This document shows positions 6,051 to 57,667 of a stretch of DNA of 64,000 nt, in pieces (the first letter of the stretch is position 1; every line of letters starts with the position of its first letter). The notes under the pieces were generated by a model, which was not told the DNA's origin, ran no database searches, and saw only the letters and a program-made list of their open reading frames with translations. The position numbers were made by a program, and so were the translations under genes. Source of the DNA: Fistulifera solaris (taxonomy: Eukaryota). The stretch covers positions 558,001 to 622,000 of the forward strand of contig AP026123.1 in the NCBI GenBank assembly GCA_030295235.1, read 5' to 3'.

Positions 6051-6330
6051 CTATAAGCCCTTACTGTATCTTACGTTTTGCCGCGACTGCGTTTCAGTCA
6101 TGAATCAATATCATTTCGAGTGAGTCAGATTGCTACCTAACCTCCGTTCATTCTGCAAGCATGTTCAAATAGATTTGTCGCTATCACAGTGCAATTGTTA
6201 CTAGCATTTACATCGTTCATTTTCATTCTCATTCTTAACGTTGAAAGACTAGGGGACCTTGGCCTTCGCAACACTACGCATAGACCTAAAGTGTTCGTCG
6301 TTTTTGCCACGACTGCATTTCAGTCATGAG
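6051..6330 (+). promoter_or_regulatory. Dimer of the dispersed GACTG-N-CAGTCATGA module
   Basis: ccgcgactgcgtttcagtcatga (6081) and ccacgactgcatttcagtcatga (6307). Confidence 0.7.
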
Positions 6331-6748
6331 CTACACAATTCTTTATTCTTTCCTATGTTGTGTTGATTTTCTTTCCGCCCCACTATAAGCAATTGTTCAT
6401 AACATGCAAAGCCTTATGAGCGTGCCTTATGCCGGAATGAATGGGAAATGGGAAGTGAAATATTGCTGTTCCACGCTTGATCTAGCTTTATTAGTAAAAA
6501 AATGACCGTTCCTTATCCTTAATAATCAAAACCCTTCGAGTTAAAAGCCACGCTCGTCTATATGTCGAGGCGATGATGGCGATGAGCAAAAGAGCCGCCA
6601 TCTCCTTTTCATTTGAAAGTGATTGATGTCCTTTGAAACATGTCTAACTTATAATCAACATGGACGATTAGTTTTTCAAGTTTAAAGAGCCTTCTTCGTT
6701 CTCTCAAGCAATATCTATATCAGATACTCGCAACTTCTTTTTTATGAA

Positions 6749-7598
6749 ATGGCCGAGAGAGATCCGTTTCACACCGACGACGATTTTGGCGCTACGGTAC
6801 ATTCATTCGCTGATACGTTCGATTTCTCGCTAAATACAAAATTGGCTATATTGACGTCTATCCTTTTTGTTCTAATAACTCATTGGAAATGTGAGTGATT
6901 GCGCGTTTTTTCATTATTCTAGTGAGTTTTCTCACGGTCTTTTTTGTCAATGAACCGCAGCCTCAATAGAAAAGTGGTATAGAAGCCTGAGATTTCAACT
7001 AAAGCATATAACAATCAAGGAGTTTATCGTAAACTGGTGGTGGACGAATATTGAGTATGTTCGAGGAGCATGGTTTATCGGAAATGAGATTCTGCGGAAT
7101 ACTTTTTTGATCCTGAGGGGCAGCCCAGATTATTCTAAACGAGATGGTGTGTATACGGACTCGACGGAGAAGCAAGATGGCTATCGGTCGTTTATGCCAG
7201 CGTTACTGCATGATGAGCATCTGAATGATGTACTCGAGCCAAGCAGAAAAGAACAAGGAACAGAGGCCACTTTAACTAATGGTCATCATATTAGACATGA
7301 CAATCGCGCTATCACAAAAGTATCGGCGACAGAGAAAGTACCGTTAAGGCAAGAAGAAATTGAACCTGCGTTCCGTCTTGAAAAAAGCTATCCTCCTGGT
7401 TGGTTAGTATTCCACTCGCGTTTAGGTGTTGTTCCAAAGAGCGTAGCCGACGAATACGATCGGAGAAAAGTTCTTTTGGTGGACGAAGCATCACATGGTC
7501 TGATGCATAATAAAGCACGTAACGAGTGTTTATCCTCTCATGACCCACATCCGCTACTCGCCGGCAATAACAGTCAATCATCGCTTACTGTTCAATGA
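6749..7598 (+). CDS. Hypothetical protein with one N-terminal hydrophobic segment; intron 6891..6960
   Basis: ATG at 6749; removing the GTGAG...CCGCAG intron gives an open frame into ORF 7107..7598. Confidence 0.6.
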
Positions 7599-8383
7599 GG
7601 CTTGGGAATATCATTGTAACGACTTGACTTTCGCCAACGGCCCTTTGACAGTCAGATTTCTTTTCAAATTCATAGTTTACACAAGGTTGTGAAACTGGCC
7701 ACGAAACCCTAGCTATACGCAGCCGGCCCCTTTACATTAGCAATGCGAAAGTCAGATTCCAGACATGGTAATGAGCGATCCTTACTCTACAGAATAATCC
7801 AATCTGTGTTGCCAACATCACATACCATGTATGTTATATCTAATGGTGTGAATCATTTTTGTCTTGTTCATGTTTCGACGTCGACTCCGGTTATCCTTAG
7901 AATTGAGTCGTAGCGGCATAGTGCTAGGGTTGACGATTGACGACTGACACTCTTAGCTGCCACGTGGTAGTCACAAGTCACAATGCTGAAGAATAAGGTA
8001 AAGGACTGTACATTTTTCGTGATAGTCGCGTAAACAATGACGCAATGACCGCCGAACACCGGAGCAATCGTGTTCGGCGAAACGCTCCTCACTATAGGCT
8101 TATTCTGTGAATTCTGTCCCGGTACGCCGAAAGGCGGAAACCGTTACCGTTATTCCGCACACAATGTACCAGTCTGAATTATCAATGACGGTTTTTAGTG
8201 TACTCCGCAACAAAATCCTGTCGATTTCCTTATGCAGAACGTCTACCGCAACTGGCGTAGAAAAGATTGACATGGCCGAACCGCTTCGAAGGTCTCGCTC
8301 GCTGCGGAACTTTTCATAATTTTCGCAATCGTATCGAGCGAAGACTTTGTTGTTCTATTCCACTTACCAAGCAGATATCAAGC

Positions 8384-12179: not shown

Positions 12180-15100
12180 TTACAAGAAAGCTTTATATTG
12201 CTTCACGTCCTCCTTGGTACTAAGCTTACCCGAGGCAACAGATTGGCCGTGGGTACCGGGCATCGGCATGTTTTGCGGAATGGAGACGAGACTGGAGCCA
12301 CTAGGTGGGACGTTTGTCAATCTCGTAGCAATAGTAGATGCACCGAGCGAACCCGCATAGGAATCGGAATCATTATATCCGCGGTACCCACTCGAAGGGC
12401 CACCCGTTTTTTCGAGTTCCATCTTCAGAAGAAGATGTAGTAGACTCTTCGTCGGAATCTTCATCGGAATTGCTTCCTTCCGAGTCAGAAGCGTCGCCTT
12501 CTTTGTCGGTCGCTGTCGTAACTGTACGCGTTTTGCCCCAAGAGAAATCATCCATATTGGCGAAAGCGTAAATAGGAAGAATGAAGTAGAACACGGGAAT
12601 ACCAGCGACACAAAGACAGCGAACCACCACAGATAATCCCATCGCGAGCGAACAAGGAATGAAAGCATCTGTAGTGAGAACGAAACTGCATAGAATATCA
12701 ACACAAACGTGTCGATAAGCTCGGGCTGGGTGATGAAAAGATATGCCAGGTAACCAATGTAGATCAATGAGGCTGGGAGAATCATCGTGACGATCAAGTC
12801 CATGACGACGACCATTTTCATGGAAAACATGCAGATACCACACATTGTTTGGACCTTTAGCAGCTCGTACATGTTATGAAACGTAGAATTGATCCAGCGA
12901 CGGCGCTGTGAAAGAAGAATCCACATCGTGTGTGGCACGATCGTCCAACACATCGCTTCGGGTACGAAACTCAGTCTCATTCCTGGAAAGTACTGCAAAA
13001 GCAGTGTTGTAAGCATTCGATCCTCTCCTAGCTCAAAAGATTCTTCTCGTGAAGTGAAGGGATATCGTTGCGTGCGTAATCCGTGTATACCAAATCATGT
13101 GCGATCAAGCATTTCATATCTTCTGTCATCACACGATACCTTCAAAGAAAAAATTAGTCACGAAACGCGAAAGATTTGTAGGGTGTGCCGAGTAAACTTA
13201 CATTGTAAAACAACCGGGTAAGCATGTCACGCAACCGAAAACAGATTCGAAAGCTTTCTTCAAGTGGTGACTGGAATAGTACTCGAACACTTGAATCATG
13301 GTGACCCAAGATTGCGCCTTGTTGTCTACTTGGGTCTCTCCACAGCAAGCCAGAATCTTTTTATCCTGCTCCATGCTGTACACCATGTGGGACATCGAAT
13401 CTACATGGACCCTGGTGTCGGCATCAATTGTCATCAGGTATTCGATGTCTTTCGCGGGCATGCCTAAACTGAAAAGAGCTTTCACGAGAGCCATGTCAAG
13501 CTCACTAGGTTCGCGGTTGTAATGAATGCGATTGAACATGCCAGCCAGAACCAGCTGCGAGTCACGCTTCCCTCGATTACCAGGACGACCGCTAGATTGC
13601 TCTTCTGGGCCGCCACGCTTTACAACCACAACATACTTCAGCGACAATTCAACTTCCTGGACTTCTTTTTCGTAAACTCCAGCGTAAACACTTGCATAGT
13701 TGTCACGTCGACGTCCAAGAGATCGATAATGATGGGTTTCGTCGTCTTCATTTATTTCGAAACCAAGAATACGAGCGCAGATCTCGGGCGTACTGTACTT
13801 TTCACCGCTTCCAGTAATAACACCGTCCGCGACCACGCACACCAATTTGTTCTCCTCGGGGTAAGTTGTGTGGATCACGGAATCAAGAGTCTTACGCAAC
13901 TCGCCATCACCTTCATTGTAGCAAGGGACCATCACCATGACCGCCGCTTGCAAATCGTCCTCCGCAAAGCTTCGGTGAGATCTGCGGAACAAAAAAAGAC
14001 CAGAGAATGAGAAGAAAGACGCGATTTTTTCTCCGAGAACGACAACTCAAGCTGGATCTTACCTGCATAAGTAAACAAAGGAGCACAAAACCTGCGAGTC
14101 AAAAAGATCAAGACGGGAACGTGTCAGTCGCGATTATGGCGTGAGAAAAGCTATGTCCCACAAACGCATTTTTCTTCTCACCTGCACCGCAAGGAATCCT
14201 GTGATGAAGAATAGGAAGAAGTACCTGATAGAGGGGAAAAGAAAGAAGGCGAACGTTAGATGGTGGAAGAATGAGTCATATTTTTGTCGGCTTGGCTCAA
14301 TTGGGCCGTGCCAAGACTCTCCGAAGAGAATCCGGCACCATAGACCCGTCTAGACGCTTCTTGAATTCACATGCAGTTGGACTTACATTAATACACCAAT
14401 GGAATTGCACGCCGGATCGTAGCGGTCGTCCACAACTGCCTCGAAGAAGAGCTGATCCAAACAGCTGGGTGGAAAGGGGTTAGATTGGCGTTCATGTCGT
14501 GACAACGTCATCTGTCCGAGACTTACTATAAGTAATCGTCCGTGTCAAAGAGATCATAATAGATCGCAGTAGCGTCCCTGTTCAACTGGATCATGATCAG
14601 CTGGTGTAAATCCGCATAAAGATAAGCGTTGGGGTGATCGAGGCTCTCCGAGATGGTGTTCGTCTTGTTGTCCCAAAGATCGCTAACGTACTGCGTCACA
14701 TTGTAAATCGTATTCTTGATTCGAATGTATTGCATCCCATTTTGACCAAGCTCCCATTGTGGAATGACCAATTGTCCGGCCACGTCGTCTTTGAACTGTG
14801 CTTTGACGGCGTCGATGCCGACGATCTGATCGTGACAAGGAATTCCGGTAAGCAAATCGAGTTCCGTCAACTGCGTGCAGGTAGATGTATCATGCGTGGC
14901 CAAATACTCGTTCTTGGTCGTATTCAAGCAGAACGCGGGAAGTCGAGCCGGTGCTACACGGGGAAACAGGCGACTAGCGTCATTTCCCAGAAACTGGAGA
15001 ATTCCATCCTTACCACCGGGGTGGCGATCAACGTAGCCAGCCATGTCATAGATAGTTCCAAAAATTGTGATCCAAGCTTCTCCTTGTTGCTTCCAAATCT

Positions 15101-16057
15101 CCGACTGAGTGTACTTGTAACTTTCTTTGCAGAAATAGAGGGGTAAAAAGCCGATTCCTCCTACGGTGATGGCCGACATTAAAATCGCAATCATGCAAAT
15201 GGTCACTTTCTCACTGCGAGAATAAAATGAACATGTTAGTAACTGATGCCGCAAAACAGGTAGCAAACAAGACGAATGCCGCAAGCAACAAAAGTCGAAT
15301 TCAAAGACAAGGACCAGAATTGACAAGAAACGTACCGCCACGCTTGTTTCGGACCAGCACCCTCTTTCGGAACACAAGCATCCGGTATCAAGAAAGTACA
15401 GATAAAAGCAAGCGATCGCCAAGCCTGCGATCCAGGAGGACTTTCGGGACGCTTGTAATCTTGCAAAGGCGGCTCAAATCCGTTTTTGGCCCGCTTTGAA
15501 TTTTTGGAGGCCGCCGAACGCGCACTTCTCGCACTGCGAATACTGTGCACCGATTTCGAGCTGGTACTGCGTCCACTGCGATTCGATCGATTGCTTCGTA
15601 CACTGCGATCTTCGTGACTACCGACCGAAGTGTCGTCGGCGGCAGCTTCGCCGGGTGCGACCGACAATCCGTGTCGATACTCGTCGTACAATGCAGCATC
15701 GCCATCGCGAGGAGGTCCAGCGTATCCGTCATAGGGAATGGGCATTTCCTCGGGGTAGCGAGGAGGCGGGTAATTTCCATGAGGATATGCGCCAGGAGGA
15801 ATGTATCCGCTACCCAGACTACGTTCGTCGCGATAGCCTTGACTGTAGGCCGTCGAGTTGCCCCCATAAGAAGTTCCTGCATACGAAGTGCCCCCGTAGG
15901 ATGTTCCTGTAAACGACCCCGAGTAAGAGGCAGATCCTTGCAGCTGCTGTTTCAACATCATCACCTGTTCCGCCAGTTCCGCTTTCTCTCGAGCTAAACG
16001 TTCCGCTTCTTCGGGAGTGTAATGGCCGTTGTGGCCCATTCCGTTCTCCGGCATCAT
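12180..16057 (-). CDS. CHS: Chitin synthase A (GT2, division-2 type with cytochrome-b5-like domain), multi-intron
   Basis: VPCYNEG, NRGKRDSQ, IDADT, CVTCLPGCFTM, GEDR, SQRRRWINS, MDDFSWG; cyt-b5-like WITIFGTIYD..HPGG. Confidence 0.95.
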
Positions 16058-23296: not shown

Positions 23297-23589
23297 TGTC
23301 TCTACAATGCGATGATTTTTGACTGATTCCAAACGTTATACCGTCGACACAGGCAAACCGTCGATCCAGGCAATGAATGACCTGGTAATTATCGAAAAGA
23401 AAGAGGTGTTTCTTGATGTGGTATCCTGACGGGCACGAAACGTAACATCCATCATTGACTTGGCCTCATTTTGTCATCTTTGTTGGCGGCCGCTTCTTCG
23501 ACGAAGGATGAATGACTACTTTCGGAAAAACTGTAGTACGTCAGCCAAGGGCAATTTACCGTCGACCGTCAGACGTCCTTTGAACGAGT

Positions 23590-23852
23590 ATGAATCAAAG
23601 TGTAGACGACGTTTTCAACGACTGCATTTTCAGTCATGAATCACATTTCGTGTGTGACTCCTCGCTCACTACTGGTAACGTCCATCTTTTCTGCTCGTTT
23701 AAATCAACCCAAGCGACTAAAATGTCCTTAGTTGCATCTGTATTCTACAAATCGACTTTTTACGGCAAAATCGGTGCGGATCATTGCCGTTTGTACTTAC
23801 TATACACCCAAAATGTTATTTTTAGGGAACCACGACTGCGTTTCAGTCATGA
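23590..23852 (+). promoter_or_regulatory. Dimer of the dispersed GACTG-N-CAGTCATGA module upstream of PDS
   Basis: cgactgcattttcagtcatgaatcac (23619) and ccacgactgcgtttcagtcatga (23830). Confidence 0.7.
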
Positions 23853-24182
23853 GTAATAATTCGAGCTATGTGCGACGTTGTTTGTTTGTGCAAACAAAAA
23901 AAAGTTGTGTCTATAGTAGCGCTATGGTTGAGAAGTGATGCATCGTTATCTAGTATCTTACCGGGAATCTAGGCGCTATGGTTCGTCAGGAACCGAAGCT
24001 TCGGTAGCATCAAAACGTGGTCGGTTACCTCAACTCATGAAAACATTACTTCAAAGTAGACATGCATTAAGGACGCTTTTGCTTTAACATGATCTTAAAT
24101 TTGTACTTATCATTATTTGCTCATTAATCTGATTTAATCATGACTCTTTTGTCATGTCACTCCGTCAGTGCGTTCGTACCTA

Positions 24183-29644: not shown

Positions 29645-29877
29645 TCTGTCTTGAATACCAGGTAGACAAATCTATAACATTCATCGGCGTTATTTTATGT
29701 TCTTGTTGTTCTTTTCGCTAATATTTCACAAAATTTCCAGTTGTCGAATGACAAGAAAACATTCGACCACACATAAGAAACGCCTGTTGCTAACTTCTAC
29801 GTGCATTTTCACGTAGGCCCCCGTAAGGAAATTTATCGATTGTTGGCTGGCGCCTTTGAGAGGCGGAAAAGTGATCA

Positions 29878-30490
29878 AATCCTTGAAATTTTACTATGAA
29901 ACGGAGTGTTGGTTTACGCCAGCCAAGACTGGATTGTACAGTAGTCATGAGTTATGAACAGAAACAACAAAGGGTTCCGTTTTGGTTTGCGTCTCCTGCC
30001 TCTCGCAACCGTCCATTGTCATTCAGCTGCGAATAATTATAATTACGGGTAGAAAAATTCGCAACAATGATGATTCTGAATTACTTGTTGAAAGTTTTTT
30101 TTCACGTCGAAATAATCCGAGGATCGACACCTTGAATTTCCACTATGAAACGGAGTGTTGGTTTGCGCCAGCCAAGACTGGATTGTACAGTAGTCATGAA
30201 TCATGAACCGAACAAACAAAGGGTTCCGTTTTGCGTCTCTCGCATCCGTCCATAGTCAATCAACTGCGAATATAATTATAATAACGGGTAATTAAAGTCG
30301 CAACAATGATGATTCTGAAATACTTGTTGAGAGTTTCTTTAATTTTCACGTCAAAATAATCCCAGGATCGACACCTTGAATTCCACTATGAAACGGAGTG
30401 TTGGTTTACGCCAGCCAAGACTGGATTAGACAGTAGTCATGAGTTATGAACTGAAACAACAAAGGGTCCGTTTGTGCGTCTCTCGCATAC
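29878..30490. repeat. About 2.5 tandem copies of a roughly 245-bp unit
   Basis: CTATGAAACGGAGTGTTGGTTT.CGCCAGCCAAGACTGGATT occurs three times (GACTG at 29927, 30176, 30419). Confidence 0.95.
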
Positions 30491-38712: not shown

Positions 38713-39034
38713 TCTTGTGAGTAGTGCGTGAAGTGGAAAAACGATCGGAATGAAAACAGCAAACTGAAAGGCCAACTGAGACAAGCTGTAGCACCGCAAG
38801 TGAAACGGGGGCAACCCAGATCTTTCAATACAGCAAATAAGAAGAATAACAAGCACAAAATGACGAACACTCGGCACCTTTTTTTGATCTGACTTCAGTT
38901 GTTGACGTTTTCTCGACAAAGGGGACGTGTGGAAGAGGAAATCAAAAGTCTGGTGTCCACCACGTATGTCCGAGTTTCCGGGACTGTAGTTGAGTCATGA
39001 AATCATTCCGGAAGTTTATTGAATGAATCATCAT

Positions 39035-39365: not shown

Positions 39366-39535
39366 TGTCCTTGTGCAGAGGTCGTCTTTGATCTCACGCC
39401 TGTATCTAGACTACCCGTTCATACATCATACGAAATGAAAGTTTACTTATCACTCTATGTCACCGATAAAGGTGAAACTCGCACTTCCGCTTCACGCAAA
39501 AGATCATCCATCCCAGAAATGAGAGAAATAAGTAT

Positions 39536-40510: not shown

Positions 40511-40971
40511 ATTCAACGTATTATTGAGTTTATTGATCTGTATTTTGGGCACCCCAACTTGGAGGTGAAACGAATTGTGTCAAAGTAGCGCGATAGAAAG
40601 AATGGCGACAAACAAACTATCGACCCCTTTACGGCAAAACTGAGATTCTTGTTGTGTCTTTTTAAACGTTGTCAGCTCTGTGTTAGTGTCAACGCTGATA
40701 TTTCACTTGTTGTATGTTGCCGAGGATCTTTTCATCGGTTTTGCTGTCATCCTTTTCTTGCTGCGGGGTGCTGCGTTTGCCAACAATAAAAAAAAGCTGC
40801 ATTCCAAACAAGATGGCGTCTGATTCTGATGGACGGAAAGACGGATCGCGGTGAATTTCGCTGTGACCAGTGACCAGCGACCAGTGACGACGACTTCTTT
40901 TGTGATAGTCGTAGTTCGCGGTGCGACTGGTCGTTCGACGGACGCCTCCCCGAAACATCGTTGAATGCAGA

Positions 40972-41905
40972 AAACACTATAGTATCAATGTGTTGGTTTA
41001 CCGAGACCGCGACTGAATTTCAGTCACGTTCCAATGACGGAAAACGAATAAAACGGCGATAAGCTGGGCCACAAATGATAGTATGAAATGTATAATCTAT
41101 TTTATAAGGCTTTAATGGGGGTCAAGGTAGATTGAGGTATTTATTTGAAACGCAAAATCTTATTTACGCTTCGAAAAGCTTTCCGGATCGTTGACCTTGA
41201 ATCTAAACGGTGTTTAGATTTATGCGTTGACTGCAAAAACCACTATATTATCAATGTGTTGGTTTACGGAGACCGCGACTGAATTTCAGTCACGCTCTAA
41301 TGACGGAAAACGAATAACGCCTTCGAAAAACTTCCGAATCGTTGACTGCAAAAAACACCATAGTATCAATGTGGCGATAAGCTGGGTTTAATGGGGCGTC
41401 AAGGTAAATAAAGTTGTTTATTTTTTTTAAACGCAAAATCTTGATTTACGCCTTCGAAAAACTTCCGAATCGTTGACTGCAAAAAACACTATAGTATAAA
41501 TGTGTTGGTTTACGGAGACCGCGACTGAATTTCAGTCACGCTCCAATGACGGAAATGAATAAAATGGCGATAAGCTGGGTTTAATGGGGCGTCAAGGTAA
41601 ATAAAATTGTTTTTTTTTTTTAAAGCAAAATCTTGATTATTTACGCCTTCGAAAAACTTCCGGATCGTTGACTGCAAAAAACACTATAGTATCAATGTGT
41701 TGGTTTACGGAGACCGCGACTGAACTTCAGTCACGCTCCAATGACGGAAAACTAAAGAACGGCGAGAAGCTGCGGGCCACAAAAGGTACCAGGTAGTACG
41801 AAATGTATAATCACATCAAAGGCTTTCATGGGTGTCAAGATAAATTGCGGTTTCAGTTGAAACGCAACATCTTGATTTACGCCTTCGAAAAACGGATCGT
41901 TGGCT
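40972..41905. repeat. Degenerate array of about 4 units (195-266 bp), related to the terminal satellite
   Basis: CACTATAGTATCAATGTGTTGGTTTACGGAGACCGCGACTGAATTTCAGTCACG with GACTG at 41011, 41277, 41523 and 41718. Confidence 0.93.
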
Positions 41906-42227
41906 GCCAGGGTAACTCTCCCCGCATGCATGCTCCGACAATCAGATGATTAGTCGTCCCATTGTTCCTAGTTTCAGATCAGCTTGAATCAGAAACTTAC
42001 AAAGAGAGCGCCCGCCCGGACTGTCTTTCCCGTTGAAAACGTGCTCAAGACTAGTAGTAGCACGTCCGGTTTGCCGCTTGGCTCCAGCATTCTCACACCA
42101 TGACGAATTCATTAAGATTTATGTTACTGTATAGATTTGCACAATGATCTTGGAAGCCACTACAACGAAAAAGTCAACCGCCTCAAACGATAAGGTTTCT
42201 TCTCTCCTCGAAAGGCACTAATTTGAA

Positions 42228-42900: not shown

Positions 42901-43377
42901 TTTACTACTGATAATCACGCAATATGTTCAACAGATACAGGGTTTCGTCCTTCGTTTTGAATAAGACAAGCGCAGTAATGGCAATCTTTGCTTATTATTG
43001 TGGGTTGTGGCTGCTGATGAACTGCACATCGCACCGGTAAGCGGTAAGACATGATTCATTCCCTCTTATGACCTCAAAATCTAAAAGTGACGTCACTACT
43101 AAATGAATGACATTGCTTTGAAGGCATAATAAACTTATAAGTGCCTCCAATCCGAAGGTAAATACTCCGTACAAAGTAAGTCTGACTCATTCGTGGCTTG
43201 TAATCTCTTACTATAGCCATTCGTGTAGCGAAGATCTTTGATTGCGGCCAAATTCCGCTCCGGTCGCCAACGTACCTTTTTTGACCGCGCTTCGCCGCAA
43301 TGTTTTCATTCGCAACGAGCCATCACTTTCATAAAAAAGCCTGTTGTTTGTGAACTTGTGCATCTTTTCAATAAAAA

Positions 43378-44364: not shown

Positions 44365-44596
44365 ACGCACAACATTAATACGTTAGGAAAAACAAAGACG
44401 ATAGACCCGTTTCGAACAAGAATAGCTTATTAGTGATGCCATCTCGCTACTCACTCGCTATGCAAAGAAAAGTTATGTAGTTTATGTAAACAGATTTCGA
44501 AGAGGAATGAGCAGTGTCAATGAAGGGACTAACCAATCGACGGAGACTGATGAAACATGAAGTCATGCATTTGCTTTCACTGCGACCTATCAACAA

Positions 44597-45911: not shown

Positions 45912-46781
45912 CTTAAACGGCTGGAAAGTCCGCTTTTTTAATGGGAAGGGAGCCAGACAATAGCCGCTTGCTGTGTGATGTGGCGACCTTGTTGCATCGC
46001 TTGGTGGAAGTCATCGCTCGAAGTCAGACGTGGTGAAGAGTCACCGGGGTGAAGACGCAAAGAACGCAAATTGAATCTTGATAGCAGCCTTAAGTCCACG
46101 AAGACTGGCGCAGCTTGAGTGGCGAATCAACCTTAGCAAATGTTGAACGATGGCTTAGTGCGTACTACGTAGATAATCTTGTTCGGTCTCTACAACGTAT
46201 TCTCACACCAATACTTGAGAATTCTTTCTTGTTCAAGGTTCCGCTAAAGAGAAAGTGAGAGTAGAATCTCGTCTCGGGCAACTGGTAATGATTATGAATG
46301 CAGCAGCGACTGCGACGTTCCTAATGCTTTGATTGTAGTCGGCAATAGACCTCCAGGCTGTTTGTGGACGATAACTGAGAAAGGTGATGTGTTATTTCCA
46401 TGTTGTCATGGAAGTTGTTTTTGTGGAAAATTCTCTTTATTTTTGCCAGTACAAAATCTACGTATTCCTTTCTCCCCCTCGCGGATCAAAAAGATACCGA
46501 AATGCGTAAGGAAAAACTGATTATACTAAATGCACCACAGCCACGCCGATCGCACCGGTGTAGCGATAACCGTCGACCAAAGAAAACGGGGCCGGTCGGG
46601 CAACCCTTGGGTCGAGCTTGGCCTAATGCCATGGCAATGGCAATGGATTTCCTCGCCCCCTTTTCGATGTCTCGAGAAAGCGCCAGTTGCTTCCTTGGTT
46701 CAATGCAATAGTGATGCAGAAAATTCTCGATCGAACAGAATACTCTAAATAGCAAAATAAAACGAGTTGAAAAATGTATCT

Positions 46782-49700
46782 TTAAAACCAAATATCATCC
46801 TCTTCTTCGGGATCTTCTATCGGTGCGAGGGCCAAACCTGTCATCCAATTCTTTGCAGGGGTTACATGTTCCTCTTGTCGGCCTAAGCTGAATGTATTCA
46901 TACTCAGTGATTTCGACATCGTGGGGGCACCAAGAACTTCACCATCGGAAAGTGAACGCTCGCCCACCGATGTCATCTTGGGTAAGGAAGCCAAATCTAG
47001 GGCGGAGTGGAAACGGTTGCCTCTTGTCGAGACCTTCACTAAACCTTCTAGCAATTCCAATGCCGAGTCAACGTCATTCAGGTAGCTAGCAGCTGCACTA
47101 GGTTTCTTCCCCACCGTACAGGTGAAGATATCCAAATCGGGGGAAACGTAATTGTCACAAGAAGACACATCCACCAGCTGTAAAGTGGCTGGCATCGGCA
47201 ACAGCGGCTGGTTCGGTCGTGGTCGAGCTTCGAGCACTCGCCTGCCGATTTGACGCATGACTGATAACATGGGCTCGTCACAGTGGTCGTCTCCCAACAC
47301 AAGGGCGAAATCGACCATTCCTTTTTGAGCAATGTCAGGAAAGCGCTTGATGACGCGCATGGCAAGAACACCTTTGTTAACACCCTTCGGGCGTACCTCA
47401 ACGTAACCACCCTCTTTTAGTCCTCCGTGCAACACATCTACGGGAAAGCTCCTAAGATATTTCGACAAGTGGTCTTCGAGCTCTTTCGCTTGTAGCGAAC
47501 CAAATTCAGTGTCTGCGTCACGGTACTGCCAGAGAACCTTCATCTCAGTCTCTTCAATATAACTTCCATGAGTTCTCGACGTGTATACTTCCATGATGGT
47601 GACAGCTAGAGATCGCCAAGTCCGATCGGTTTCGGGTACAAGTGTTTCCCAACGTCTCTTTGACGACGTCTTAGGTGTCGGCCATGAAATGAACATACCA
47701 TGCTCGGCAGCCAAGCCAAGATTAGGAATGTCACCAAGCGTCTTGGTGAGAGAATGACGCTCTTTCCACTCACGACGAAAACTGTGTTTCTCTTGTCCTC
47801 GCAAAGACCTCGTAGCGCATCTATCATTCGAGCAGTAGGGACCGATTTTCCGTCTCTCTCTTTCACCATTTGAAATCTGGTTAGAGAATCCAACTGAAAT
47901 GTAAAGAATGCAGCATGAGAAGCGATCCATAAGGAACAGAAAGTAAAATAGAGTCCAAATAACTTACGTTGTCGTTGCTCACAATGGTTCCGCCATAATC
48001 TAGCAAGATTAATCGCGCCTTAGACTTTTTGTATGCTCGGGTGACGAGCGCTGAGTCGAGTGATGTGAAACCTGTATCCATACCAAGCAAGCGATAATTC
48101 AAGCCTAGACCAGCCCCTGAGAACTGCACCGGATTAATGTTCTTGTGTACGCCCTTCAAGTCCAGCATTACCGCTAAAGCCCAGCGCTGCGTGGTGACGC
48201 GTGTGACGAACTCCGAAGCGATGCTCAGGCGACGAAGACGCTCTTCCTCCTGCATGTTTGCTGCTTGGAAAAATGCGCTGGCGATCTCCGATATTTTCCA
48301 CGGATTAATATGTAGTGCCCCACGCATCACACGTGTTGAACTGGAAAATTCTGAAAGAATGCAGATGCCCCGTTTACGACCGTCCGCACGTCCAAGGTCT
48401 GTCAAAGCATCTTGATGTGCGATCGTGAACTCAAGCGGAAGCAGATTCAAGCCATCGCGAATAGAAGTGACGACGCACACGTCGGCTGCTCGTAAGAGTG
48501 CCACTCGCTGTTGTAAGCGGATCTCTCGCTCATGAAGAATCTGGAGATGAACTGAGCCTGGCCACTTTTCATTGATCTTTTGCGCAAGGGCACAAGTTTC
48601 GGACTCCGTGCGATGAAAATCCTCTCCACGTTCAAATGCTTTTATTCCAACTTGGATCAAAACAATTTTACCTACCCATTCTGGGCAGCGTGTCAAGAAT
48701 CGTTCGAACCCAAGTAATTTCAACGGGATTCCCTTCAGACTCTCCAATCTGTCGACCCCGCAAAAAATGATTTTATCTGGAAACTGAGTTCGGAGACTGG
48801 ATACCCGCTCCATGGTACTTTGATGAATCAATACCTGCCTCAAGACAGGTGGCTCAATACCAGCGTGAATGCTCGTAACAGCCACATTTCGGCCAGCAGT
48901 GTCGATCGCAAGAGTGTGTCCACCTGATGCGTCAGGAATCATTCCATAATGAAGACCCAGCAGTCGACGGCACGACGTCAAGAAGTGACGAGCGTACTCA
49001 AAAGGTGAAAACCAACCTGATCTGCATTCAGCATACCTCGAAGCAAGTCCTCTCGGCACCATAGTGTTCGGAATATTTCCGATGACGGGAACGGAGTGTG
49101 AAGAAAGATTCCTACCTTTGCCATTGGGATGCGGCGGGTCAAGTAGGAAGGCAAGATTAGCAGATGGAAACCGTGCACCCAAACGAGGTCACCTTCGTGG
49201 AAGCATTGAACAACCTTCTCGGCAAACTGGCGATTGACAGCCGTGTAAGCAGCCCACAACTCTGCCTCGCGGCCACGACCGCCGTGGATAGGACCTTGTT
49301 CAACGTCATCCAAACTGTATTCGGAAAACTCATTTCCGTCAACTTCCGAGATTTTGGACGCGCCGTCACCATTGTCGTCTTCGGGGCCGTTCGAGTACAC
49401 GGACGTCACATTATGTAAAACTGGCCAAAGAACGCCTTTACAGAAGCCATTGTACATTTCACCAAATAGAATGGGGTCGACCCAAACTGGAACGCAGTTG
49501 AAAGGCAACAAACACTCTTCGACTAGCCGGCGCTCATTGCGAGGCACCCCTGCTTTCTCTTGCGTATTTCCATGCCAGCCGCGCCACTTGACAACTCCCA
49601 CGCGGGTCACGCGCAAGTGCGTTTGCATAGACAATAGCATTTCGTAATCCCATTCAGCGGACCACTTTCCGTCGTCGCTGCGATTCAAAATCACTGGCAG

Positions 49701-50640
49701 AAATGCGCTGACCACGACGAGACCGTCGGTTGAATTCAAATGCACAGCTTGTTTCGGAGCTGACTTGGATCCAGTCCCTCCACTTGAGCGGTGATGGGAA
49801 ACCGGAGCAGGTGCAAAACCCACTGCTTTTTTTGCGAGGGGCGCCTACTGGAGCACCAACACCTCCTTGGTTCGCCGAAATGCGCAGAGCAGATATTGTT
49901 AACGCTCCATCCGAGCTGTTGTGTCGTGCATGCAAGTTTTGTGCACGCTGCAACCCTTGATGTGATGGAAGACGATTGTGATCGATATTTGCGGGAGCAC
50001 CCGTGATACCGAGAACATCATTTACAGTGTAGACCTCTCGACTCTGGATGAGATGAAGTGGAACTTCGTGGACCGGTTCACCGCCTTCTGCAGGTTCAGC
50101 AGGAAAATCTGCAGCATGGGGTTGCTCAGGTCCTCCATCCGAAGGATTTTCCCAACGGTGGAAGACACCGGCACGATGAATCGCGTATCGGTAGGTAAAC
50201 TTGCTTTTTGGACGTCCCTCCGAACCGCCTTCAGCGACATCATGGGGATGTTTCGCCGAAAGAGGTAACGTGATCGGGTTAAGGGTATGATACCATGGAA
50301 AATCCGTAGGTGTCGTATGAAGAACAAACGACTGAATAGAAGGAGAGAGAGAGAATTGAGATTTCATGCTCAAAATAAAACCCTGAAAACTCTATATTGA
50401 TCCGAGACACGCAAATCATTCGCCTTTGCTGATAGTCTTGTGTCACTCGAAACACTCGACTGAATTAACAGAATTCTCGAGGATATAACAGTTCATAGAT
50501 AAATTTACCTTTCGTTGTCCTAAGCCCCCCGATGGTACGAGGAAGACCTCTTCACCATGAGACAAAGTCTCACAGCGCACCCGGAAGTTTACATGCGCCA
50601 CGGCGCCTAATTCGAAATCCGCTTTGTCGGTTGCGTTCAT
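46782..50640 (-). CDS. TPS: Trehalose-6-phosphate synthase/phosphatase fusion with N-terminal CBM20-like domain
   Basis: YNGFCKGVLWP, FLHTPFPSSEIFR, GVDRL..KG, RDGLNL; HAD motifs LLDYGGT, VSGK, AAEHG, VEVRPKGVNKG, GDDHCDE; N-terminal VNFRVRCET..GEEVFLV. Confidence 0.93.
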
Positions 50641-51470
50641 CTATTAATTACTTTAAGTCGACGATGAAACAAGCAAATCTTCTGTGGTGCGGACGAAATA
50701 GCAAAATCACCAACACTCGTGCTGCTTCTTCATGATCGTCAGGGTGTGTTTCCTTTGACACTTCGGGAAGGTGCTGAAGGGTCAAACGCGTCTCGTGTCG
50801 TGTACTTTATCGCAGAGAGTGGTCAAAATCATGACGTCTGATGACGGATGCAAGCACGGACGTAAATAAGTCGTCGATGTTTGTGGAATTAGATCATCTG
50901 TTTCTCGGGTATGTTGGACTGAAATGCCATCAGACCTAAACCAGCATCGTTTACTTGCGACAATGAACGATAAACACAAACAATTAGACATTGTGAAGTA
51001 GAGAAAAGCAAAGACATGATGCTTCGATTGTCTACGTCCAATTCACGTAGGCTCCGTAGGAATTTTATCGATGCAGGTAGCATCCGGAACTTTTCGAATT
51101 CGACCTCATCAATGGTCGGGTCCGATTGCGACCAACTTCATTGTAATAGCTATTCTCATACCTACATAGAGACGATAAGCGAGAATAGACATTGATTGGA
51201 ACGCCAAACATGCAAAAGACAACAGATTCAATGTTACAAATAAGGTCTACGTGACTGTCACGTAGGCTCCGTAGGGAAATTTATCGATAGAGGGGAAACC
51301 CGGATGTTTGATATAGCGTTCAAGGCAGACAGAAAGCCTGATAGAAGGCGACAAACAAGCTATGAAAAAGATCGATCTTTGATTTTCCTTTTAATGAACC
51401 TAACTTATCGAAGGGAAATAGAGAAGCAAGAAGCAAACCATACTAATCAGCAATCAAGCATAGCGTCATC

Positions 51471-52576
51471 ATGCAAAGTAGGACGAATGCAGAGTCAACG
51501 TATTGCGTAGCGATCGAGGATATAAAAGATGCTGCAAAACGGATCGAAGGGATTGCCCATCGGACACCGGTGCTAACTTCTACGTCCATCAACCAAAGGG
51601 CAAAGCGAAATCTCTTCTTTAAAGTGGAAGCCATGCAAAAACTGGGTCATTCAAATTTCGCGGCGCGCTCAATGCTGTCAGAAGTGTCTTGTCGGAGCAA
51701 CCCGACGACGAGATTATGTTTGTCTCCCATTCGTCCGGTAATCACGCCCAAGCGTTGGCCCTCGCTGCGAAGCTCTCTAGACAGAAGGCAACTATTGCAA
51801 TGCCAAACAATACTCCTTCCGTCAAAAGGCAGCTGTTGCTGATTTTGGGGCTTCTATTGTGATGGTCGAGAACACGAATGAAGCACGGGAAGACAAAGCA
51901 ACTGAAATTGTCAATGAAAATGGTGGAGGTGAGTTAATAGCGTGAACGGAAACACAGCCGCATTTCTTTACAGCACGGCTCAAACTATTTAATCGATTTT
52001 CGAAAAGTGTTTGTACATCCCAGTGAAGATTCCCGTGTAATAGCAGGACAGGGCACTGTGTGTCTTGAATTTCTGGAGCAGATGGGGGATATCAAGTTGG
52101 ATGCTGTTATTATTCCCGTTGGAGGAGGGGGCTTAGCTGCAGGAAATGTAATGACTCTTCGATCCTTGCAACCAGACGTCAAAATCATTCTGGCTGAACC
52201 GTCAGCACTAGACGACGCATACCGAAGTTTCAAGGAGAAGACATTACTGAAGCATGCGGAGGATAACAAATTGGAAAGTGTAGCAGACGGTTTGAAAACT
52301 ACGTTGGGACCGAACACGTGGCCGATTATTCGTGATAAAGTTGACAGTATATTTACTGTGTCGGAGAAGGAAATATTGCAAGCAACTAAACTTATTTGGG
52401 AGCGCCTCAAAGTGATGATAGAACCCAGTGCTGGAGTGGGTGTTGCTGTGGCACTGTCGGAAGAGTTTGCGCAAACGTACAGCGATGCACTCAATGTTGG
52501 TATAATTTTATGCGGTGGCAATGTGGATGTTGTAAAAATTGCTGCAAAAATCGATCAGTATGCTATTGCGGATTAA
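51471..52576 (+). CDS. PLP-dependent serine racemase / threonine dehydratase-like enzyme
   Basis: HRTPVLTS, FKVEAMQK(TGSFKFRGA after frameshift), HSSGNHA, IAGQGT, PVGGGGL, VADGL, IEPS, LCGGN. Confidence 0.9.
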
Positions 52577-52657
52577 TTATTTATTATACAGTAAAGACTT
52601 ATCACTGATCCCTCTAGCGGGCTATATCTTGGTAAGCTCAGGCAATCGACCAAAAAT

Positions 52658-53449
52658 TTAATCGTTTGACCTCAACAAATTATCAATTCGATCGATTGAG
52701 AGGTGCAAAACGATTGACACAACGACGTTATCGAGGCCACCGGGGCAAGTTGCTTCCACAATGGCAGCAATAGCTCCATAGGATAGGACAAGTCGAAGCG
52801 GCAAAACATCCAAGCCAAGAATATAAAAGAAGATATAAATACCAGCAACCGTCCCTAGAAAGACACCTACCACGGACCCTTCCATACTTTTGCGTGCTGC
52901 AAGAGGCATTTGATACACGTGGCGTCCGAAGAATTCTCCTATCAGCGGCGCCGCGCCAGAGTCCCCTAAACCTACGGCAGCAATTAGAATAGCGGCCCGA
53001 GCAGACATGAAATGATAGAGACCCAAGTAAATCAGAAGTGCAGTAAATTGCATCGGTCCCCATAATAGTTCGGAAGGAGAAGAAGACCGAGACAGCGCTT
53101 GAACTTCGATATCATCTGGATCTTTGCAAATGAAACCTTTGTACCAAAATCGAATCATGAGAGCTGCTGGCACAATTGTGTTGAATCTCCATGTCCAGTC
53201 CGTCGTATCGTAGAGCGGCCAGAAGATCAAACTGCTACTCAACACCATATGAATGCATGGTTTAGTCCAAGTTGATCGGCTTCTGTCCGTGCTGCTCAAT
53301 CGATTGACAAGTTCAAGGCTTATTTTAATGCATATCAACGTCCATTGCAGCACTAAAATATTATTGAAAATTGGGGACAGATTCTTCCATGGTAAGTATT
53401 CCAGAACAAAAGCCATGATAGCAGACGCGAACAACTTCAAGAGGTTCAC
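52658..53449 (-). CDS. Phytol/dolichol kinase-like membrane protein (start uncertain)
   Basis: KPCIHM, GLGD..A..IG..FG, KSMEGS and GLDN motifs; multiple TM segments. Confidence 0.8.
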   Translation of the reverse strand: MNLLKLFASAIMAFVLEYLPWKNLSPIFNNILVLQWTLICIKISLELVNRLSSTDRSRSTWTKPCIHMVLSSSLIFWPLYDTTDWTWRFNTIVPAALMIRFWYKGFICKDPDDIEVQALSRSSSPSELLWGPMQFTALLIYLGLYHFMSARAAILIAAVGLGDSGAAPLIGEFFGRHVYQMPLAARKSMEGSVVGVFLGTVAGIYIFFYILGLDVLPLRLVLSYGAIAAIVEATCPGGLDNVVVSIVLHLSIDRIDNLLRSND

Positions 53450-53682
53450 TCGGACTGAATGGTGCTGACCAGTATTCGATTCAATATCGATGCTCGGAAA
53501 AGTTTTGGGGCTGGCGTATTATTACGGCATGATGGTTCCTGGTAAGAAAGTGTCAATCAGGGTATGGACGTTCCTCATTCAATCCGAAAACAGCATCAAC
53601 AACAGCAATTATAAGAACCAAGTGTTGTTGTTCCTTTCATTTTCATCTGAATATGTTGTGAAAAGAGGCGCAGGCAGATTTA

Positions 53683-53740
53683 CTATAGACCCAATGTGTT
53701 GATCACATTATCCGCGACTGCTTTTTCAGTCATGAATCAC
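53683..53740 (+). promoter_or_regulatory. Solo copy of the dispersed module
   Basis: ctatagacccaatgtgtt..ccgcgactgctttttcagtcatgaatcac. Confidence 0.7.
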
Positions 53741-54132
53741 ATTTTGTATTTTTTTCATTCTTTCTGCACGCCTTTAAAGGAAGCTTAAAAATCGCCTGAC
53801 GAAAATAAAGTTTAAATGATGACTCATTTAGTTGGGAGCGAAAGACGTCGACAGCGTTTCGCGACCATCTTCTTATCCAACGGAGTTGACTCTGTTATGA
53901 AAGGCGAAAGGCGACACTTTTCCGACGACTCACCCCAATCCCAGTCAGTCACGGAAGAGCCTCGTCTGTCTGTCGACCCAACAGGTCGATCTTGTGGCTT
54001 GCGGCAATGCGGATGATTTTTCGTTCGCCCTTTTTTGTTTTGCATGTTGCTTTGCAAAAGACTGGATTACCTATTGTGCTTTCTTTGAGGGAAAGATTCT
54101 GCGGTGGCTTTTAATGCCTTTAAAATCAGACA

Positions 54133-57100
54133 ATGGAAGACGAAAAAGCGAGTAACGACCGCATTGGTCACGCCGAAGTGCACTTTAACGACGAGGACGA
54201 CGACGAGGATGAAGATGAGGAAGATGAGGAAGAATCCAGTGACGAAGATGAAGACTTATCTGATGTATCTCACGAGGAAGATGCTTCGGATGATGAAGAC
54301 ATTCTGCTTTATTCTGCTGATCACTACGACGAAGACAACTTACCGGACTATGCGTGTCGTTATTGCGGTATTCACAATCCGTCCTGCGTTGCGATGTGTG
54401 TGGAGTCCAAAAGTGGTTCTGCAATTCATCGGGTACAACCGGTTGCAGCCACCTTGTTCACCACTTGGTTCGATCGCGCTCTCACCAAGTTCAGCTGCAC
54501 CCCAACAGTCCCTTGGCAGACACCGTTCTGGAATGTTATAATTGTGCTTCGAAGAACGTCTTTGTTCTTGGTTTCGTCCCCGCGAGCGCCAGTTCGGTTG
54601 TTGTCTTATTGTGCCGTGTGTGCGTCGAGACAGTGCCTGCTTTGAAAGACATGGATTGGGAACTTTCACAGTGGCATCCGGTGTTGCAGGATCGACAATT
54701 TCTTCCGTGGTTATTATCGGTGCCATCGGAAAAGCTCCAGTTGCGTGCACGGGATATTTCGCAAGCTCAAATGACAAGGTTGGAGGAGTTGTGGAAAACG
54801 AATCCAGATGCGCGTTATGCGGATTTGAATCGCCCGGAAATAACGGAAGAACAGGATTTACCTTCCGTGCTGCGTGTGTACGATGATGGATATCATTACC
54901 AAAACATCCTTGCGCCGCTTGTACAGCTCGAAGGTGATTACGACAGGCAAATGAAAGAAAGTTTGACGGAAGAGAGTATATCTATTCGCTGGGACAAGTC
55001 GTTGGCGGGGAAACACGTGGCCACGTTTTCTTTCCATAGGTTGCAAGCGGAACAGTCGAGGATTGTGATTGGTGACGAACTACGGATCAAACTAGGACAG
55101 GGTTCGCAGTTCTTGTATGGACGAGCATGGGAGGGAGTTGGATATGTCAAGAGTATCATTGATGGTGAAGTCGAACTCGAACTACGTAACGTCTCTGTCC
55201 CTGAGAGTATTACGGATGATTACGTCGTGGAATACGTTTGGAAAAGCACGTCGTATGATCGTATGCAGAACGCTTTGAAAACGTTTGCGATCGATGACAC
55301 TTCGGTCACAGGATATATCTACCACAAGCTTCTCGGACATGCGGTTGAAGAACAGCGAATCGCTACCGCGAAAATACCAGCAACCGAAGCAGAATTCCAT
55401 GTTCCGGGCTTGCCTCCTTTGAACGAGTCGCAATTGGAAGCGGTCAGCACAGTCTTGCAGCGCCCCCTCAGTTTAATTCAAGGCCCCCCAGGTACAGGCA
55501 AAACTGTTACTAGTGCAACCCTTGTTTACCATCTGACGCGACAGAATATGGGTCAAGTGCTTGTGACAGCTCCTAGCAATGTTGCCGTCGATCAACTTAC
55601 TGAAAAGATTGCCGCTACTGGGCTCCGTGTTGTACGTCTTGCTTCAAAAACCCGTGAGCAGACGTCTTCCACAATCGATCATTTGTGTCTGCACGTCATG
55701 ACTCCTTTGGCTGCTGGTGATGAGTTTCAAAAATTGCAACGTCTGAAGGATGAGATCGGCGATCTCTCCGAACGGGATCAGCGCAAGTACCGGGCTCTAC
55801 GCAATCGTACTGAGAAAGAAATCCTTCAAGCAGCTGACGTGATCTGTTGTACGTGTGTTGGAGCTGGTGACCCGCGATTGAAGAACTTTCGTTTCCGCCA
55901 AGTGCTGATCGACGAGGCAACCCAAGCCATTGAAGCAGAAGCTTTGATTCCAATTGCCATGGGAGCAAAGCAAGTAGTTTTCGTTGGCGACCACTGCCAG
56001 CTAGGACCTGTCGTCATGTGCAAAGCAGCGGCAAAGGCGGGCTTGACGCAAAGTCTATTTGAGCGTCTTGTTCTGATTGGGACGCGCCCGATTCGTTTGC
56101 AAGTGCAATACCGAATGCATCCTGCCCTTTCTGAGTTCCCTTCCAATATGTTTTATGAAGGCAGTTTGCAGAATGGAGTGACGGAAGCCGATAGACAGTT
56201 GTTGACTATGCCCAGCTTTTCAGGCAAGGAAGATTTCCCCTGGCCTGTTCCCGAGAAACCCATGTTCTTCTATTGCATTAATGGAATGGAAGAGATTTCA
56301 GCATCTGGTACCTCCTATTTGAACCGAACGGAGGCCTCGTACGTGGAGAGGGTTGTGACCCATTTGTTGCGAATGGGCGTGACTCCCGCACAGATCGGTG
56401 TTATTACGCCATACGATGGACAGAAGAAGTATCTTTCTGATTACATGCGCCGAGTTGGCGCTCTGGCGAGTTCGCTTTATGAAGCTATTGAAGTAGCTTC
56501 GGTCGACGCTTTCCAGGGCCGTGAGAAGGACTTTATTCTTGTTTCATGTGTCCGTTCTAGCGAAACACAGGGTATTGGTTTCTTATCGGATCCACGCCGT
56601 CTAAATGTTGCGCTTACGAGAGCTCGTTTGGGAATAATCTTGTTCGGCAACCCTCGCGTATTGAGTAAAAACCCGCTTTGGGCTGCCTTGCTGATTCATT
56701 TTAAGGAGTACGAATGTCTTGTTGAGGGCCCTTTGACCAATCTGCAGGCAAGCTACATCACTATTTCACGCCCGAAGCGCAACCCGGCTAGTGATTCTCG
56801 TTACGCTTTTACTGCGCTAGCAAGAGGCGGTTGGGATGGACGTTGGGAAGACCGACGAGACCGCCCGAATGAGGCCCCCTGCCTTTAAGCGCCGTGGACG
56901 CAGCAAACAATCGGACTCGAGATTCGACCCTCGGTACGAATCATCTAACGGGGCTCCGGCTAACGCCAATGGATCCAGTGGGGTCTGCCCATTCCCAGCT
57001 TTGCTCCTCTGCCGAGTTACGCTGGCGGCGGTGATGATTTGAGCAGTGTAGGAGGCGACAGTGCTGTCGACTCGCAGTTTGGTGGAAGTAGGGCCAGTTT

Positions 57101-57210
57101 CTTCTCTCAGCAGACGCAGCGAAAAGACGAATCTCGCGGACCATCATTGGGCTACTTTGTCGGCGGACCTAGCGGTAATTTTTTTGGCGGCGATCACGGC
57201 AGAAAATAGT
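54133..57210 (+). CDS. UPF1: UPF1 nonsense-mediated decay SF1 helicase (frameshifts near 54410, 56880 and 56995; end approximate)
   Basis: CH domain (ACRYCGIH, KWFCN, SHLVHHLVR, LECYNC), QGPPGTGKT, DEATQ, VGDHCQL, QYRMHP, FQGREKD, RRLNVALTRA. Confidence 0.97.
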
Positions 57211-57609
57211 AACGACTATGGTACAAAAGAGCAGGAACAATGGACGCCGGATCGTCTATTATGAACGATAGCAGAATAGGGTAATCTTCTTTTACTTGAA
57301 AGTAGCTTTTCGGAGAGGAGGCGGCAGGGATTACCTTCCCATTCTTCTCGAGACGATCCAGGTGGTCCAAGCAGGACTTTCTTGTTGCGATCGCTAAACA
57401 GTTCACCACCCTACCAGGATACAACTGTGGATTTTGTCCAGCGACGTCGAACCGGCCATAAGAATTCAATTGAATAGTAAATCATAATAAGACAAGGGGT
57501 AGGTGGATAAGTGTCTAAATGTTTGAAAAACGGTAGATGCTTCTTGCATCGTTTGATTATTCGTAATGTCGAAAGTCGATTGCCTTGAAAAAGTTGGCCT
57601 CCGTATTTA

Positions 57610-57667
57610 CTATATAGACCCAAAGTGTTGTCCGTATTTACCACGACTGCATTTCAGTCATGAATCA
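57610..57667 (+). promoter_or_regulatory. Solo copy of the dispersed module
   Basis: ctatatagacccaaagtgtt..ccacgactgcatttcagtcatgaatca. Confidence 0.7.

Follow-up and report, generated by a model that had tools for sequence, protein, structure and literature searches.

A strand-polarised intergenic repeat with a conserved inverted-repeat core in 64 kb of the diatom Fistulifera solaris

We analysed 64,000 nt of DNA from Fistulifera solaris (assembly GCA_030295235.1, contig AP026123.1, positions 558,001 to 622,000), and this whole stretch is called the window below. It is nuclear DNA of an allodiploid raphid pennate diatom, and its intergenic regions contain a recurring module built around an inverted repeat with the arms GACTG and CAGTC. 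The open reading frames (ORFs) of the window encode ordinary eukaryotic proteins, among them COG4, phytoene desaturase, ALDH, PNPase, UPF1, chitin synthases, trehalose-P synthase/phosphatase and polyubiquitin. The phytoene desaturase is 79–87% identical to diatom proteins, and a named F. solaris protein belongs to its 90% cluster.

Many of these genes are broken into adjoining or overlapping ORFs, as at 2250–3848/3764–4762 and 46782–50367. Single-base indels against other assemblies of the organism were found at 40423, 44104, 47762 and 49827. Together they suggest introns, homopolymer errors in a long-read assembly, or both, and the ORF boundaries given here are therefore approximate.

Recurrence of the module on one strand

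A first-pass annotation of the window had described a block of about 55 bp that recurs in intergenic DNA and forms the core of three arrays at 1–1850, 29.9–30.5 kb and 41.0–41.9 kb. The exact dyad CGACTG-N3-8-CAGTCA has 10 matches in the window, where shuffled sequences predict 0.05. All ten lie on the + strand, at 6084, 6310, 23619, 23833, 41010, 41276, 41522, 41717, 53715 and 57644. When the dyad was relaxed, the search gained eight units of the 1–1850 array, which read GACTA..CAGTC, together with one unrelated − strand match at 4196. The 29.9–30.5 kb array holds three copies with the variant dyad GACTGGATTGTACAGTAGTCATGA, and the copy at 38978 is degenerate. Altogether the window has 22 full copies and one partial copy at eight intergenic loci (A to H), all on the + strand.

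An nhmmer profile was built from the 22 copies and run on both strands of the window. On the + strand it recovered exactly these 22 copies, with E values from 5e-7 to 2e-20, and an additional partial copy at 41338–41373 (E 0.007). On the − strand it gave 17 matches, all with E of at least 0.02, and 14 of the 17 are palindromic echoes within + strand copies. Together the searches confirmed the recurrence at eight loci and the place of the block at the core of the three arrays. No copy overlaps a long ORF in an ORF set that covers 58% of the window, in agreement with the earlier statement that the block is absent from coding DNA.

The module has the same orientation at 8 of 8 loci, as the annotation had noted, irrespective of the neighbouring genes: those on either side of locus C are both on the − strand, and those beside locus H are both on the + strand. 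The two-sided p is about 0.008, for a single 64-kb window that was itself selected from a very large scan. The uniform orientation across these loci is real. With eight loci in one window, chance or regional history could also be its source.

Module orientation is independent of the direction of the neighbouring genes. Upstream of the roughly 14 − strand genes, + oriented copies are present in 6 cases; upstream of the roughly 13 + strand genes, − oriented copies are present in 0. The polarity is the interesting part of the finding, and the evidence for it spans 64 kb.

Architecture, loci and neighbouring genes

Conservation in the module falls on an ACTATA box rich in A/T, on AAAGTGTTG and on an inverted repeat, YCRYGACTG-N5-CAGTCRYGR, with half-sites that read YCRYGACTG. 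An RTGWW box starts 20–21 nt ahead of GACT in 20 of the 22 copies, and an NNTATR box starts 33–36 nt ahead of it, also in 20 of 22. The distance from GACT to AGTC is 11–12 nt in 16 copies, 14 nt in three and 16 nt in three. Over a region of about 90 nt the loci are only 34–71% identical to each other, with ACTATA, AAGTGTT, CC.CGACTG and TTCAGTCATGA retained. The constant box offsets in a region of such low identity bear out the earlier description of block-wise conservation with kept spacing and dyad. One detail of that description was wrong: the spacer from AAAGTGTT to CCRCGACTG measures 11–12 nt, not 13–16 nt.

Conservation also reaches beyond the block described at first. In the array copies the conserved region extends about 60 nt farther upstream. 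In the copies of the 'ATGAATCA' type it extends about 60–80 nt farther downstream and includes a shared box about 55 nt downstream.

The module has the features of a satellite-like tandem or dispersed non-coding repeat, with head-to-tail units, eight loci and no coding capacity. Tandem Repeats Finder (TRF) reported arrays at 22–1849 (225/457 bp), 30000–30488 (243 bp) and 41372–41750 (195 bp). At 6.1/6.3 kb and at 23.6/23.8 kb the paired copies form dimers of two unit types that are homologous to each other and only weakly alignable outside their cores. Arrays A and D show a similar alternation between two kinds of unit. Units of the array type (loci A, D and F) and of the singleton type (loci B, C, E, G and H) alternate in position along the window. 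Since these two types are interleaved in one orientation, one recent local duplication does not account for the common strand.

Locus A is a head-to-tail array of eight + strand copies at 60..1728 (TRF 22–1849; nhmmer E about 2e-18). By nhmmer the copies are at 60–143, 293–373, 517–600, 750–830, 975–1058, 1207–1288, 1432–1513 and 1656–1728. Their units of 225–232 bp fall into two alternating types, which gives a 457-bp higher-order repeat. The array is the lowest-GC stretch of the window (38%), is at least 1.8 kb long, reaches the left window edge and lies upstream of COG4 (+, ATG 2250).

Locus B is a + strand dimer at 6045..6337, composed of a 'ATGAATCA'-type copy (6045–6111) and an 'ATGAG'-type copy (6260–6337) 226 bp apart. 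An alpha/beta-hydrolase gene on the − strand has its ATG (5887) 158 bp from the start of the dimer. After the second copy, at about 6350–6390, the sequence GTTGTGT..ACTATAA may be a decayed further unit. Locus C is the homologous dimer at 23583..23862 (+), with copies at 23583–23648 and 23780–23862. Phytoene desaturase (−, ATG 23296) adjoins it with its 5′ end on one side, and a bL12-like gene (−, stop 24183) with its 3′ end on the other. At 23893–23918, 69 nt past the second copy, the upstream boxes recur as a partial half-copy in inverted orientation (..GTTGTGTCTATAGTA), and it too may be a decayed unit. It is the only inverted half-copy near a module among the regions examined.

Locus D is an array of three + strand copies at 29876..30452 (29876–29959, 30123–30210 and 30367–30452), with units of 243–249 bp; its variant dyad is GACTGGATTGTACAGTAGTC. 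The gene on its left encodes an amino-acid transporter (−, ATG 29644) and the one on its right an AAA ATPase (+, ATG 30561). Locus E is the single degenerate copy at 38934..39010 (+, nhmmer E 5.4e-7), 222 bp from the ATG of PNPase (38712, −), and a 51/99-bp repeat array at 39033–39367 comes directly after it.

Locus F at 40957..41747 (+) has four copies (40957–41040, 41224–41306, 41469–41552 and 41664–41747) besides the partial copy, in units of 195–266 bp. It is flanked by the 5′ end of CK2-beta (−, ATG 40457) and the 3′ end of a small gene (ORFs 42228–42580). The small gene was placed on the − strand from a CT..AC joint at 42769/42890 in RNA runs of the organism. Loci G and H are single + strand copies found by both the exact dyad and nhmmer. 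From locus G (53667..53743) it is 251 bp to the start codon of a CTP-transferase-like gene on the − strand (ATG 53416) and 390 bp to UPF1, which follows it (+, ATG 54133). Locus H (57596..57670, core 57637–57668) lies between the 3′ end of UPF1 (+) and the next + strand gene (ATG 58137).

At loci B to G the left neighbour is therefore the 5′ end of a − strand gene, with the first copy 158, 287, 232, 222, 500 and 251 bp from the ATG, respectively. At loci C, E and F the right neighbour is the 3′ end of a − strand gene. Each of the seven assessable loci shares its intergenic region with the 5′ end of a gene, and no locus falls in a convergent region. Two chitin-synthase genes are arranged head to head at 12180–16057 (−), which includes a cytochrome-b5 domain ORF, and 17075–21065 (+). 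The 1-kb divergent intergenic region between them is without the module.

A second conserved motif, CTACGTG-N5/6-CACGTAGGCxCCGTAGG(G)AAATTTATCGAT, occurs on the + strand at 29795–29840, 51030–51072 and 51245–51290. Its inverted arms hold ACGT cores. The first occurrence is directly upstream of the first copy of locus D. The other two form a pair 215 bp apart that is followed only by vague remains of a module core. The motif may be a better-kept form of the upstream block of the module, and the pair at 51030..51290 is possibly related to the module.

Copies outside the window and candidate roles of the core

Contigs of four public runs of the organism (X1 to X4) were aligned to positions 38001–58000. 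Spliced GT..AG joints appear only in X3 and X4, along with a poly-A loose end, so X1 and X2 were taken as DNA and X3 and X4 as RNA. The contigs split into two classes, of at least 99% and of 90–95% identity, which is consistent with the allodiploid state of F. solaris. RNA-run contigs that differ by 3–5% cover the same genes, as expected from two subgenomes.

Many contigs of the same organism align only to the core of locus H, 57637–57668 (about 32 nt), and their flanks are unlike on either side. In X1, 13 contigs meet this core before and 11 behind. In X2 the numbers are 12+7 before and 8+7+11 behind. Flank agreement among these contigs is 0.43–0.51, and the upstream consensus retains CCAAAGTG at the right distance. 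Loci B and C of the window itself, with their homoeologues, must account for part of these contigs. Their numbers suggest further module copies elsewhere in the genome. Sharing of the core alone, with unlike flanks, fits a conserved site in diverged surroundings, not young full-length copies. The summed contig depth is 203–276 at locus H against about 25–37 beside it; this depth is not a copy number. In the bin of the second motif it is 401–436, compared with about 25–37 in adjacent bins.

The RNA-run contigs give zero cover in the bins of loci F and G and little at locus H, but these assemblies are small and uninformative on expression. A loose end at 57229 in the RNA runs was considered as a splice across locus H. 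It was rejected, as the window's own next bases resemble it, and it probably comes from the other subgenome.

The core CGACTG-N5/6-CAGTCATGAATCA has 0 matches in metagenome contigs, 0 in viral contigs and three in bacterial metagenome-assembled genomes, which is about chance level by estimate. The module profile found nothing in 80 metagenome loci (795,081 bases) around phytoene-desaturase relatives of other algae, where the best nhmmer E was 1.1. As far as these collections reach, the module appears specific to the F. solaris lineage. The head-to-tail arrays, taken with the absence from 795 kb of other algal contigs, point to a lineage-specific repeat. A literature search, to which Dfam and Repbase did not belong, returned no description of the module. 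The module is a real, undescribed, lineage-specific repeat of an already known kind, a dispersed or tandem non-coding repeat with a binding-site-like core.

Short-array euchromatic satellites with a protein-binding box are known, such as the Drosophila 1.688 repeats and alpha satellite with its CENP-B box. The module is like them in its intergenic units of about 200 bp, its singletons and short head-to-tail arrays, its invariant box and its restriction to one lineage. It differs in that its copies are more diverged outside the boxes (34–71% identity), keep one orientation over 64 kb and have no known long heterochromatic source array.

We tentatively favour the reading that the module is a lineage-specific repeat of about 195–250 bp in promoter-side intergenic DNA, with a conserved core that is a putative composite protein-binding site on duplex DNA. 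At about 21 and 11 nt, the distances between the boxes correspond to roughly two turns and one turn of the helix, which would place the boxes on one face of the duplex. A composite site of this kind best accounts for the invariant boxes set about one and two turns apart, for the free spacers and for the palindrome. The units, which stand alone, in dimers or in short head-to-tail arrays within intergenic DNA that has gene 5′ ends, would each offer the ACTATA box, AAAGTGTTG and the inverted repeat as one site for a sequence-specific factor or complex. A factor dimer would bind the inverted repeat, with further contacts upstream. Selection or conversion would preserve the site while the remainder of the unit drifts. 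It would probably act in cis on the promoter-side DNA, in a regulatory or boundary function.

What was observed directly is that the module is a repeat, how its boxes are spaced and conserved, and where and on which strand it lies. From this we infer that a protein binds the core, that binding may affect transcription or chromatin, that selection rather than conversion probably keeps the site, and what may have caused the shared orientation. The first-pass annotation had proposed a selected, directional site that binds protein or organises the chromosome (a candidate boundary, origin, centromere-like or recombination site) or a small structured RNA. The block conservation, spacing and polarity behind its first proposal held, and a binding site is also what we favour. 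The structured RNA found no support in the searches described below.

Several points weigh against a binding site. A regulatory site would be expected to follow the orientation of its gene, which is not seen (6 of about 14 against 0 of about 13), and the polarity is therefore unexplained by this reading. The flanks between the six left-hand gene ATGs and the modules share no motif or k-mer beyond that in shuffles. The copies were selected by their boxes, so that the conservation is partly ascertainment; the first search relied on the dyad, and only the boxes upstream of it count as independent. A mobile family, too, can show conservation in blocks among its master copies. Finally, tandem arrays of 4–8 units are unusual for ordinary transcription-factor sites.

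If the core is truly a binding site, it would supply a candidate cis-element, and via pull-down a candidate factor, in an engineered oil-producing diatom. Promoter, insulator and episome parts are scarce in F. solaris.

Repeat or mobile-element ancestry of the module is likely, given the head-to-tail arrays and the recurrence of the core in the organism's assemblies. It is possible, if doubtful, that the module is purely selfish, that is, a non-autonomous mobile element or dispersed satellite with a core recognised by its own enzyme. Such an enzyme could be a hairpin-recognising rolling-circle or single-strand transposase, and the shared orientation would come from strand-specific insertion or local amplification. 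Arrays and dimers of 195–266-bp units agree with this, as do the recurrence of the core on other contigs and the lineage-specific distribution. The short hairpin is of the subterminal type, and the unit at the first copy of locus D has a second hairpin with different arms and a similar CATTT(T) loop. Purifying selection against insertions would likewise confine the module to non-coding DNA. However, the other contigs share about 32 nt with the locus H copy and not a whole element, which argues against recent full-length copies, and the interleaving of array- and singleton-type units in one orientation is more than simple local duplication would produce.

Comparison with known mobile elements gave further evidence against a selfish origin. 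Canonical Helitrons are described as having a 16–20-nt palindrome about 11 bp before a 3′ CTRR, a 5′ TC and insertion between A and T, and Helentrons/HINEs as having 12–15-bp subterminal inverted repeats, a 5–10-bp 3′ palindrome and T-run boundaries (PMC4067079). Relative to the features described in that source, the module is similar in its palindrome near one end of a non-coding unit, its tandem tendency and its conservation in short end regions. It differs in having no 3′ CTRR, subterminal inverted repeats, defined TC/T-run boundaries or Rep/helicase partner in the window.

A canonical Helitron end was rejected, as CTRR occurs 6–16 nt past the dyad in only 3 of 22 copies and at non-homologous places. 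For a Helentron/HINE the palindrome size fits, but no common inverted-repeat pair surrounds the module in any of four regions. The same four regions lack consistent terminal inverted repeats of the type found in MITEs (miniature inverted-repeat transposable elements), and the element ends are undefined. The annotation had named a match to a Helitron or MITE terminus as evidence against its own view; the Helitron hallmarks were not found, and of the MITE hallmarks the inverted repeats were not seen in these four regions. Pfam comparison of 34 window ORFs detected no transposase, Rep or helicase-type mobile-element ORF, and the one helicase is the genuine UPF1. If the module is merely a decaying repeat, it accounts for long promoter-side intergenic regions in a compact genome and should be masked in motif searches.

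We consider it unlikely that the module is a sequence-defined replicator, either like an autonomously replicating sequence (ARS) or linked to centromeres, with a polarity related to origin or fork direction. Budding-yeast ARSs, with an ARS consensus sequence plus B elements, are modular, oriented, intergenic, about 100 bp long and have a species-specific consensus. Their orientation is not uniform along a region. The module is similarly modular, oriented and intergenic, but with eight loci per 64 kb, several of them tandem arrays, it is far denser than yeast ARSs and than origins require.

A preprint on a chromosome-scale F. solaris assembly reports three MEME motifs from putative low-GC centromeres of 36–42% GC and 1.4–2 kb (10.1101/2021.11.10.468027). 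According to its main text, the motifs recur at intervals on 43 of 44 chromosomes and are proposed to be ARSs. Centromere fragments with motifs gave more episomal transformants than motif-free ones in conjugation and colony counts, which the authors themselves call preliminary (10.1101/2021.11.10.468027). Array A, at 38% GC and at least 1.8 kb, matches the composition and size given there for candidate centromeres.

The three published motifs were searched in the window and each had 0 matches at up to 3 mismatches. The best ungapped matches were 27/49, 35/50 and 27/41, none of them at a module. Smith-Waterman sums of module copies against the motifs, taken in the better orientations, were only 2.3–4.2 standard deviations above shuffles. 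In our own comparison, published motif 1 shares a 16-nt overlap with motif 3 when the latter is read in reverse complement. The merged motifs 1/3 carry CCTAAAGT, about 20 nt and then CGACTGAATTT, resembling CCYAAAGT-N17-CGACTGMATTT of the module. A distant family relation of the module to the F. solaris motifs is possible from these comparisons.

Both are short, conserved, non-coding and recurring, clustered in narrow low-GC regions, and have the words CCTAAAGT/CGACTGAATTT in similar spacing. The published motifs differ in having no second dyad arm, and the main text of the preprint gives no orientation rule or unit of about 220 bp. In Phaeodactylum, chromatin immunoprecipitation (ChIP) of the origin recognition complex is reported to yield no origin consensus (10.1101/2024.07.07.602421), which also speaks against a replicator of defined sequence. 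For diatoms as described in these two preprints, an origin or centromere consensus was thus not found in Phaeodactylum and has been tentatively proposed in F. solaris.

It is quite improbable that each copy is a small independent transcription unit, with a short non-coding RNA that begins at the hairpin or close to it and is driven by a TATA-like box plus a proximal element, like small-RNA gene families with a common upstream element. The ACTATA/TATAWR-like box about 30 nt before CCRCGACTG and the strand-specific design would suit such a unit. The flanking pair G..T, seen in the first copy of locus B and at loci E and G, could form G-U only on the + strand, and the 'ATGAATCA'-type copies have the additional common box about 55 nt downstream. 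One X4 RNA-run contig enters a module-like core at 57625 with unlike sequence ahead. This contig, however, extends upstream of the supposed start. Post-hairpin sequence is not conserved between subfamilies, and T-runs, as possible RNA polymerase III terminators, occur at inconsistent distances.

The structure searches gave no more support to an RNA. Rfam had 0 matches at gathering score in the window and none at the modules even at E ≤ 1, and ARAGORN found 0 tRNAs in the window. RNAalifold gave only a short hairpin of 5–7 bp (−5.5 kcal/mol) with 0 compensatory pairs, and consensus folds of the 110 nt after the dyad and the 120 nt before it showed no structure. R..Y covariation beside the dyad was rejected, as G..C, A..T, G..T and A..C are all present. 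The presence of all four combinations and the lack of compensatory pairs are tolerable for a palindromic site on duplex DNA. The idea that a conserved peptide starts at the ATG past the dyad was also rejected, since the frames run for 7–29 codons and are dissimilar between copies.

None of the readings considered here accounts for the polarity on the present data; it would be explicable by strand-specific insertion, a chromosome-level function or chance. A chromosome-level function is a long shot on present sequence evidence: the module would be a strand-polarised, sequence-defined chromosomal element, such as a replicator or a polar fork or transcription barrier, oriented by chromosome geometry, that is, by the direction of an origin, centromere or telomere. 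Low-GC arrays like A would then be the same kind of DNA as the proposed centromere/ARS. If this were true, the module would be a consensus-defined chromosome-maintenance element outside budding yeasts. An orientation rule that holds chromosome-wide would be a testable handle on diatom replication or chromosome organisation.

An ordinary core or proximal promoter element of the adjacent protein-coding genes is very unlikely: a gene 5′ end is present at all assessable loci, six loci are 158–500 bp from the ATG of a left − strand gene and four or five have a + strand gene to the right within 109–860 bp, but loci C, E and F have no + strand gene at right, locus H (and probably A) has no − strand gene start at left, no − oriented copy lies upstream of any + strand gene of the window, the left-gene flanks share no motif and the functions of the neighbours are unrelated. 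The placement by 5′ ends at 7 of 7 loci still leaves room for some link with promoters.

Other repeats in the window

Two arrays of short repeats, at 34366–34780 (34/70-bp units) and 39033–39367 (51/99-bp units), are built around the palindrome TTCCAGAAAxTCTGGA. Both are in promoter-side intergenic DNA, and the second is the array that adjoins locus E. Their contig depth is raised (118–177), and many array-length joints were found there in the DNA runs.

Near the right end of the window, a 183-bp unit is repeated 12.7 times at 99% identity (60494–62814), in frame within ORF 60224–63298. In Pfam this repeat corresponds to 13 CCDC53-like stretches, followed by an FH2 (formin) domain that runs into ORF 63305–63922.

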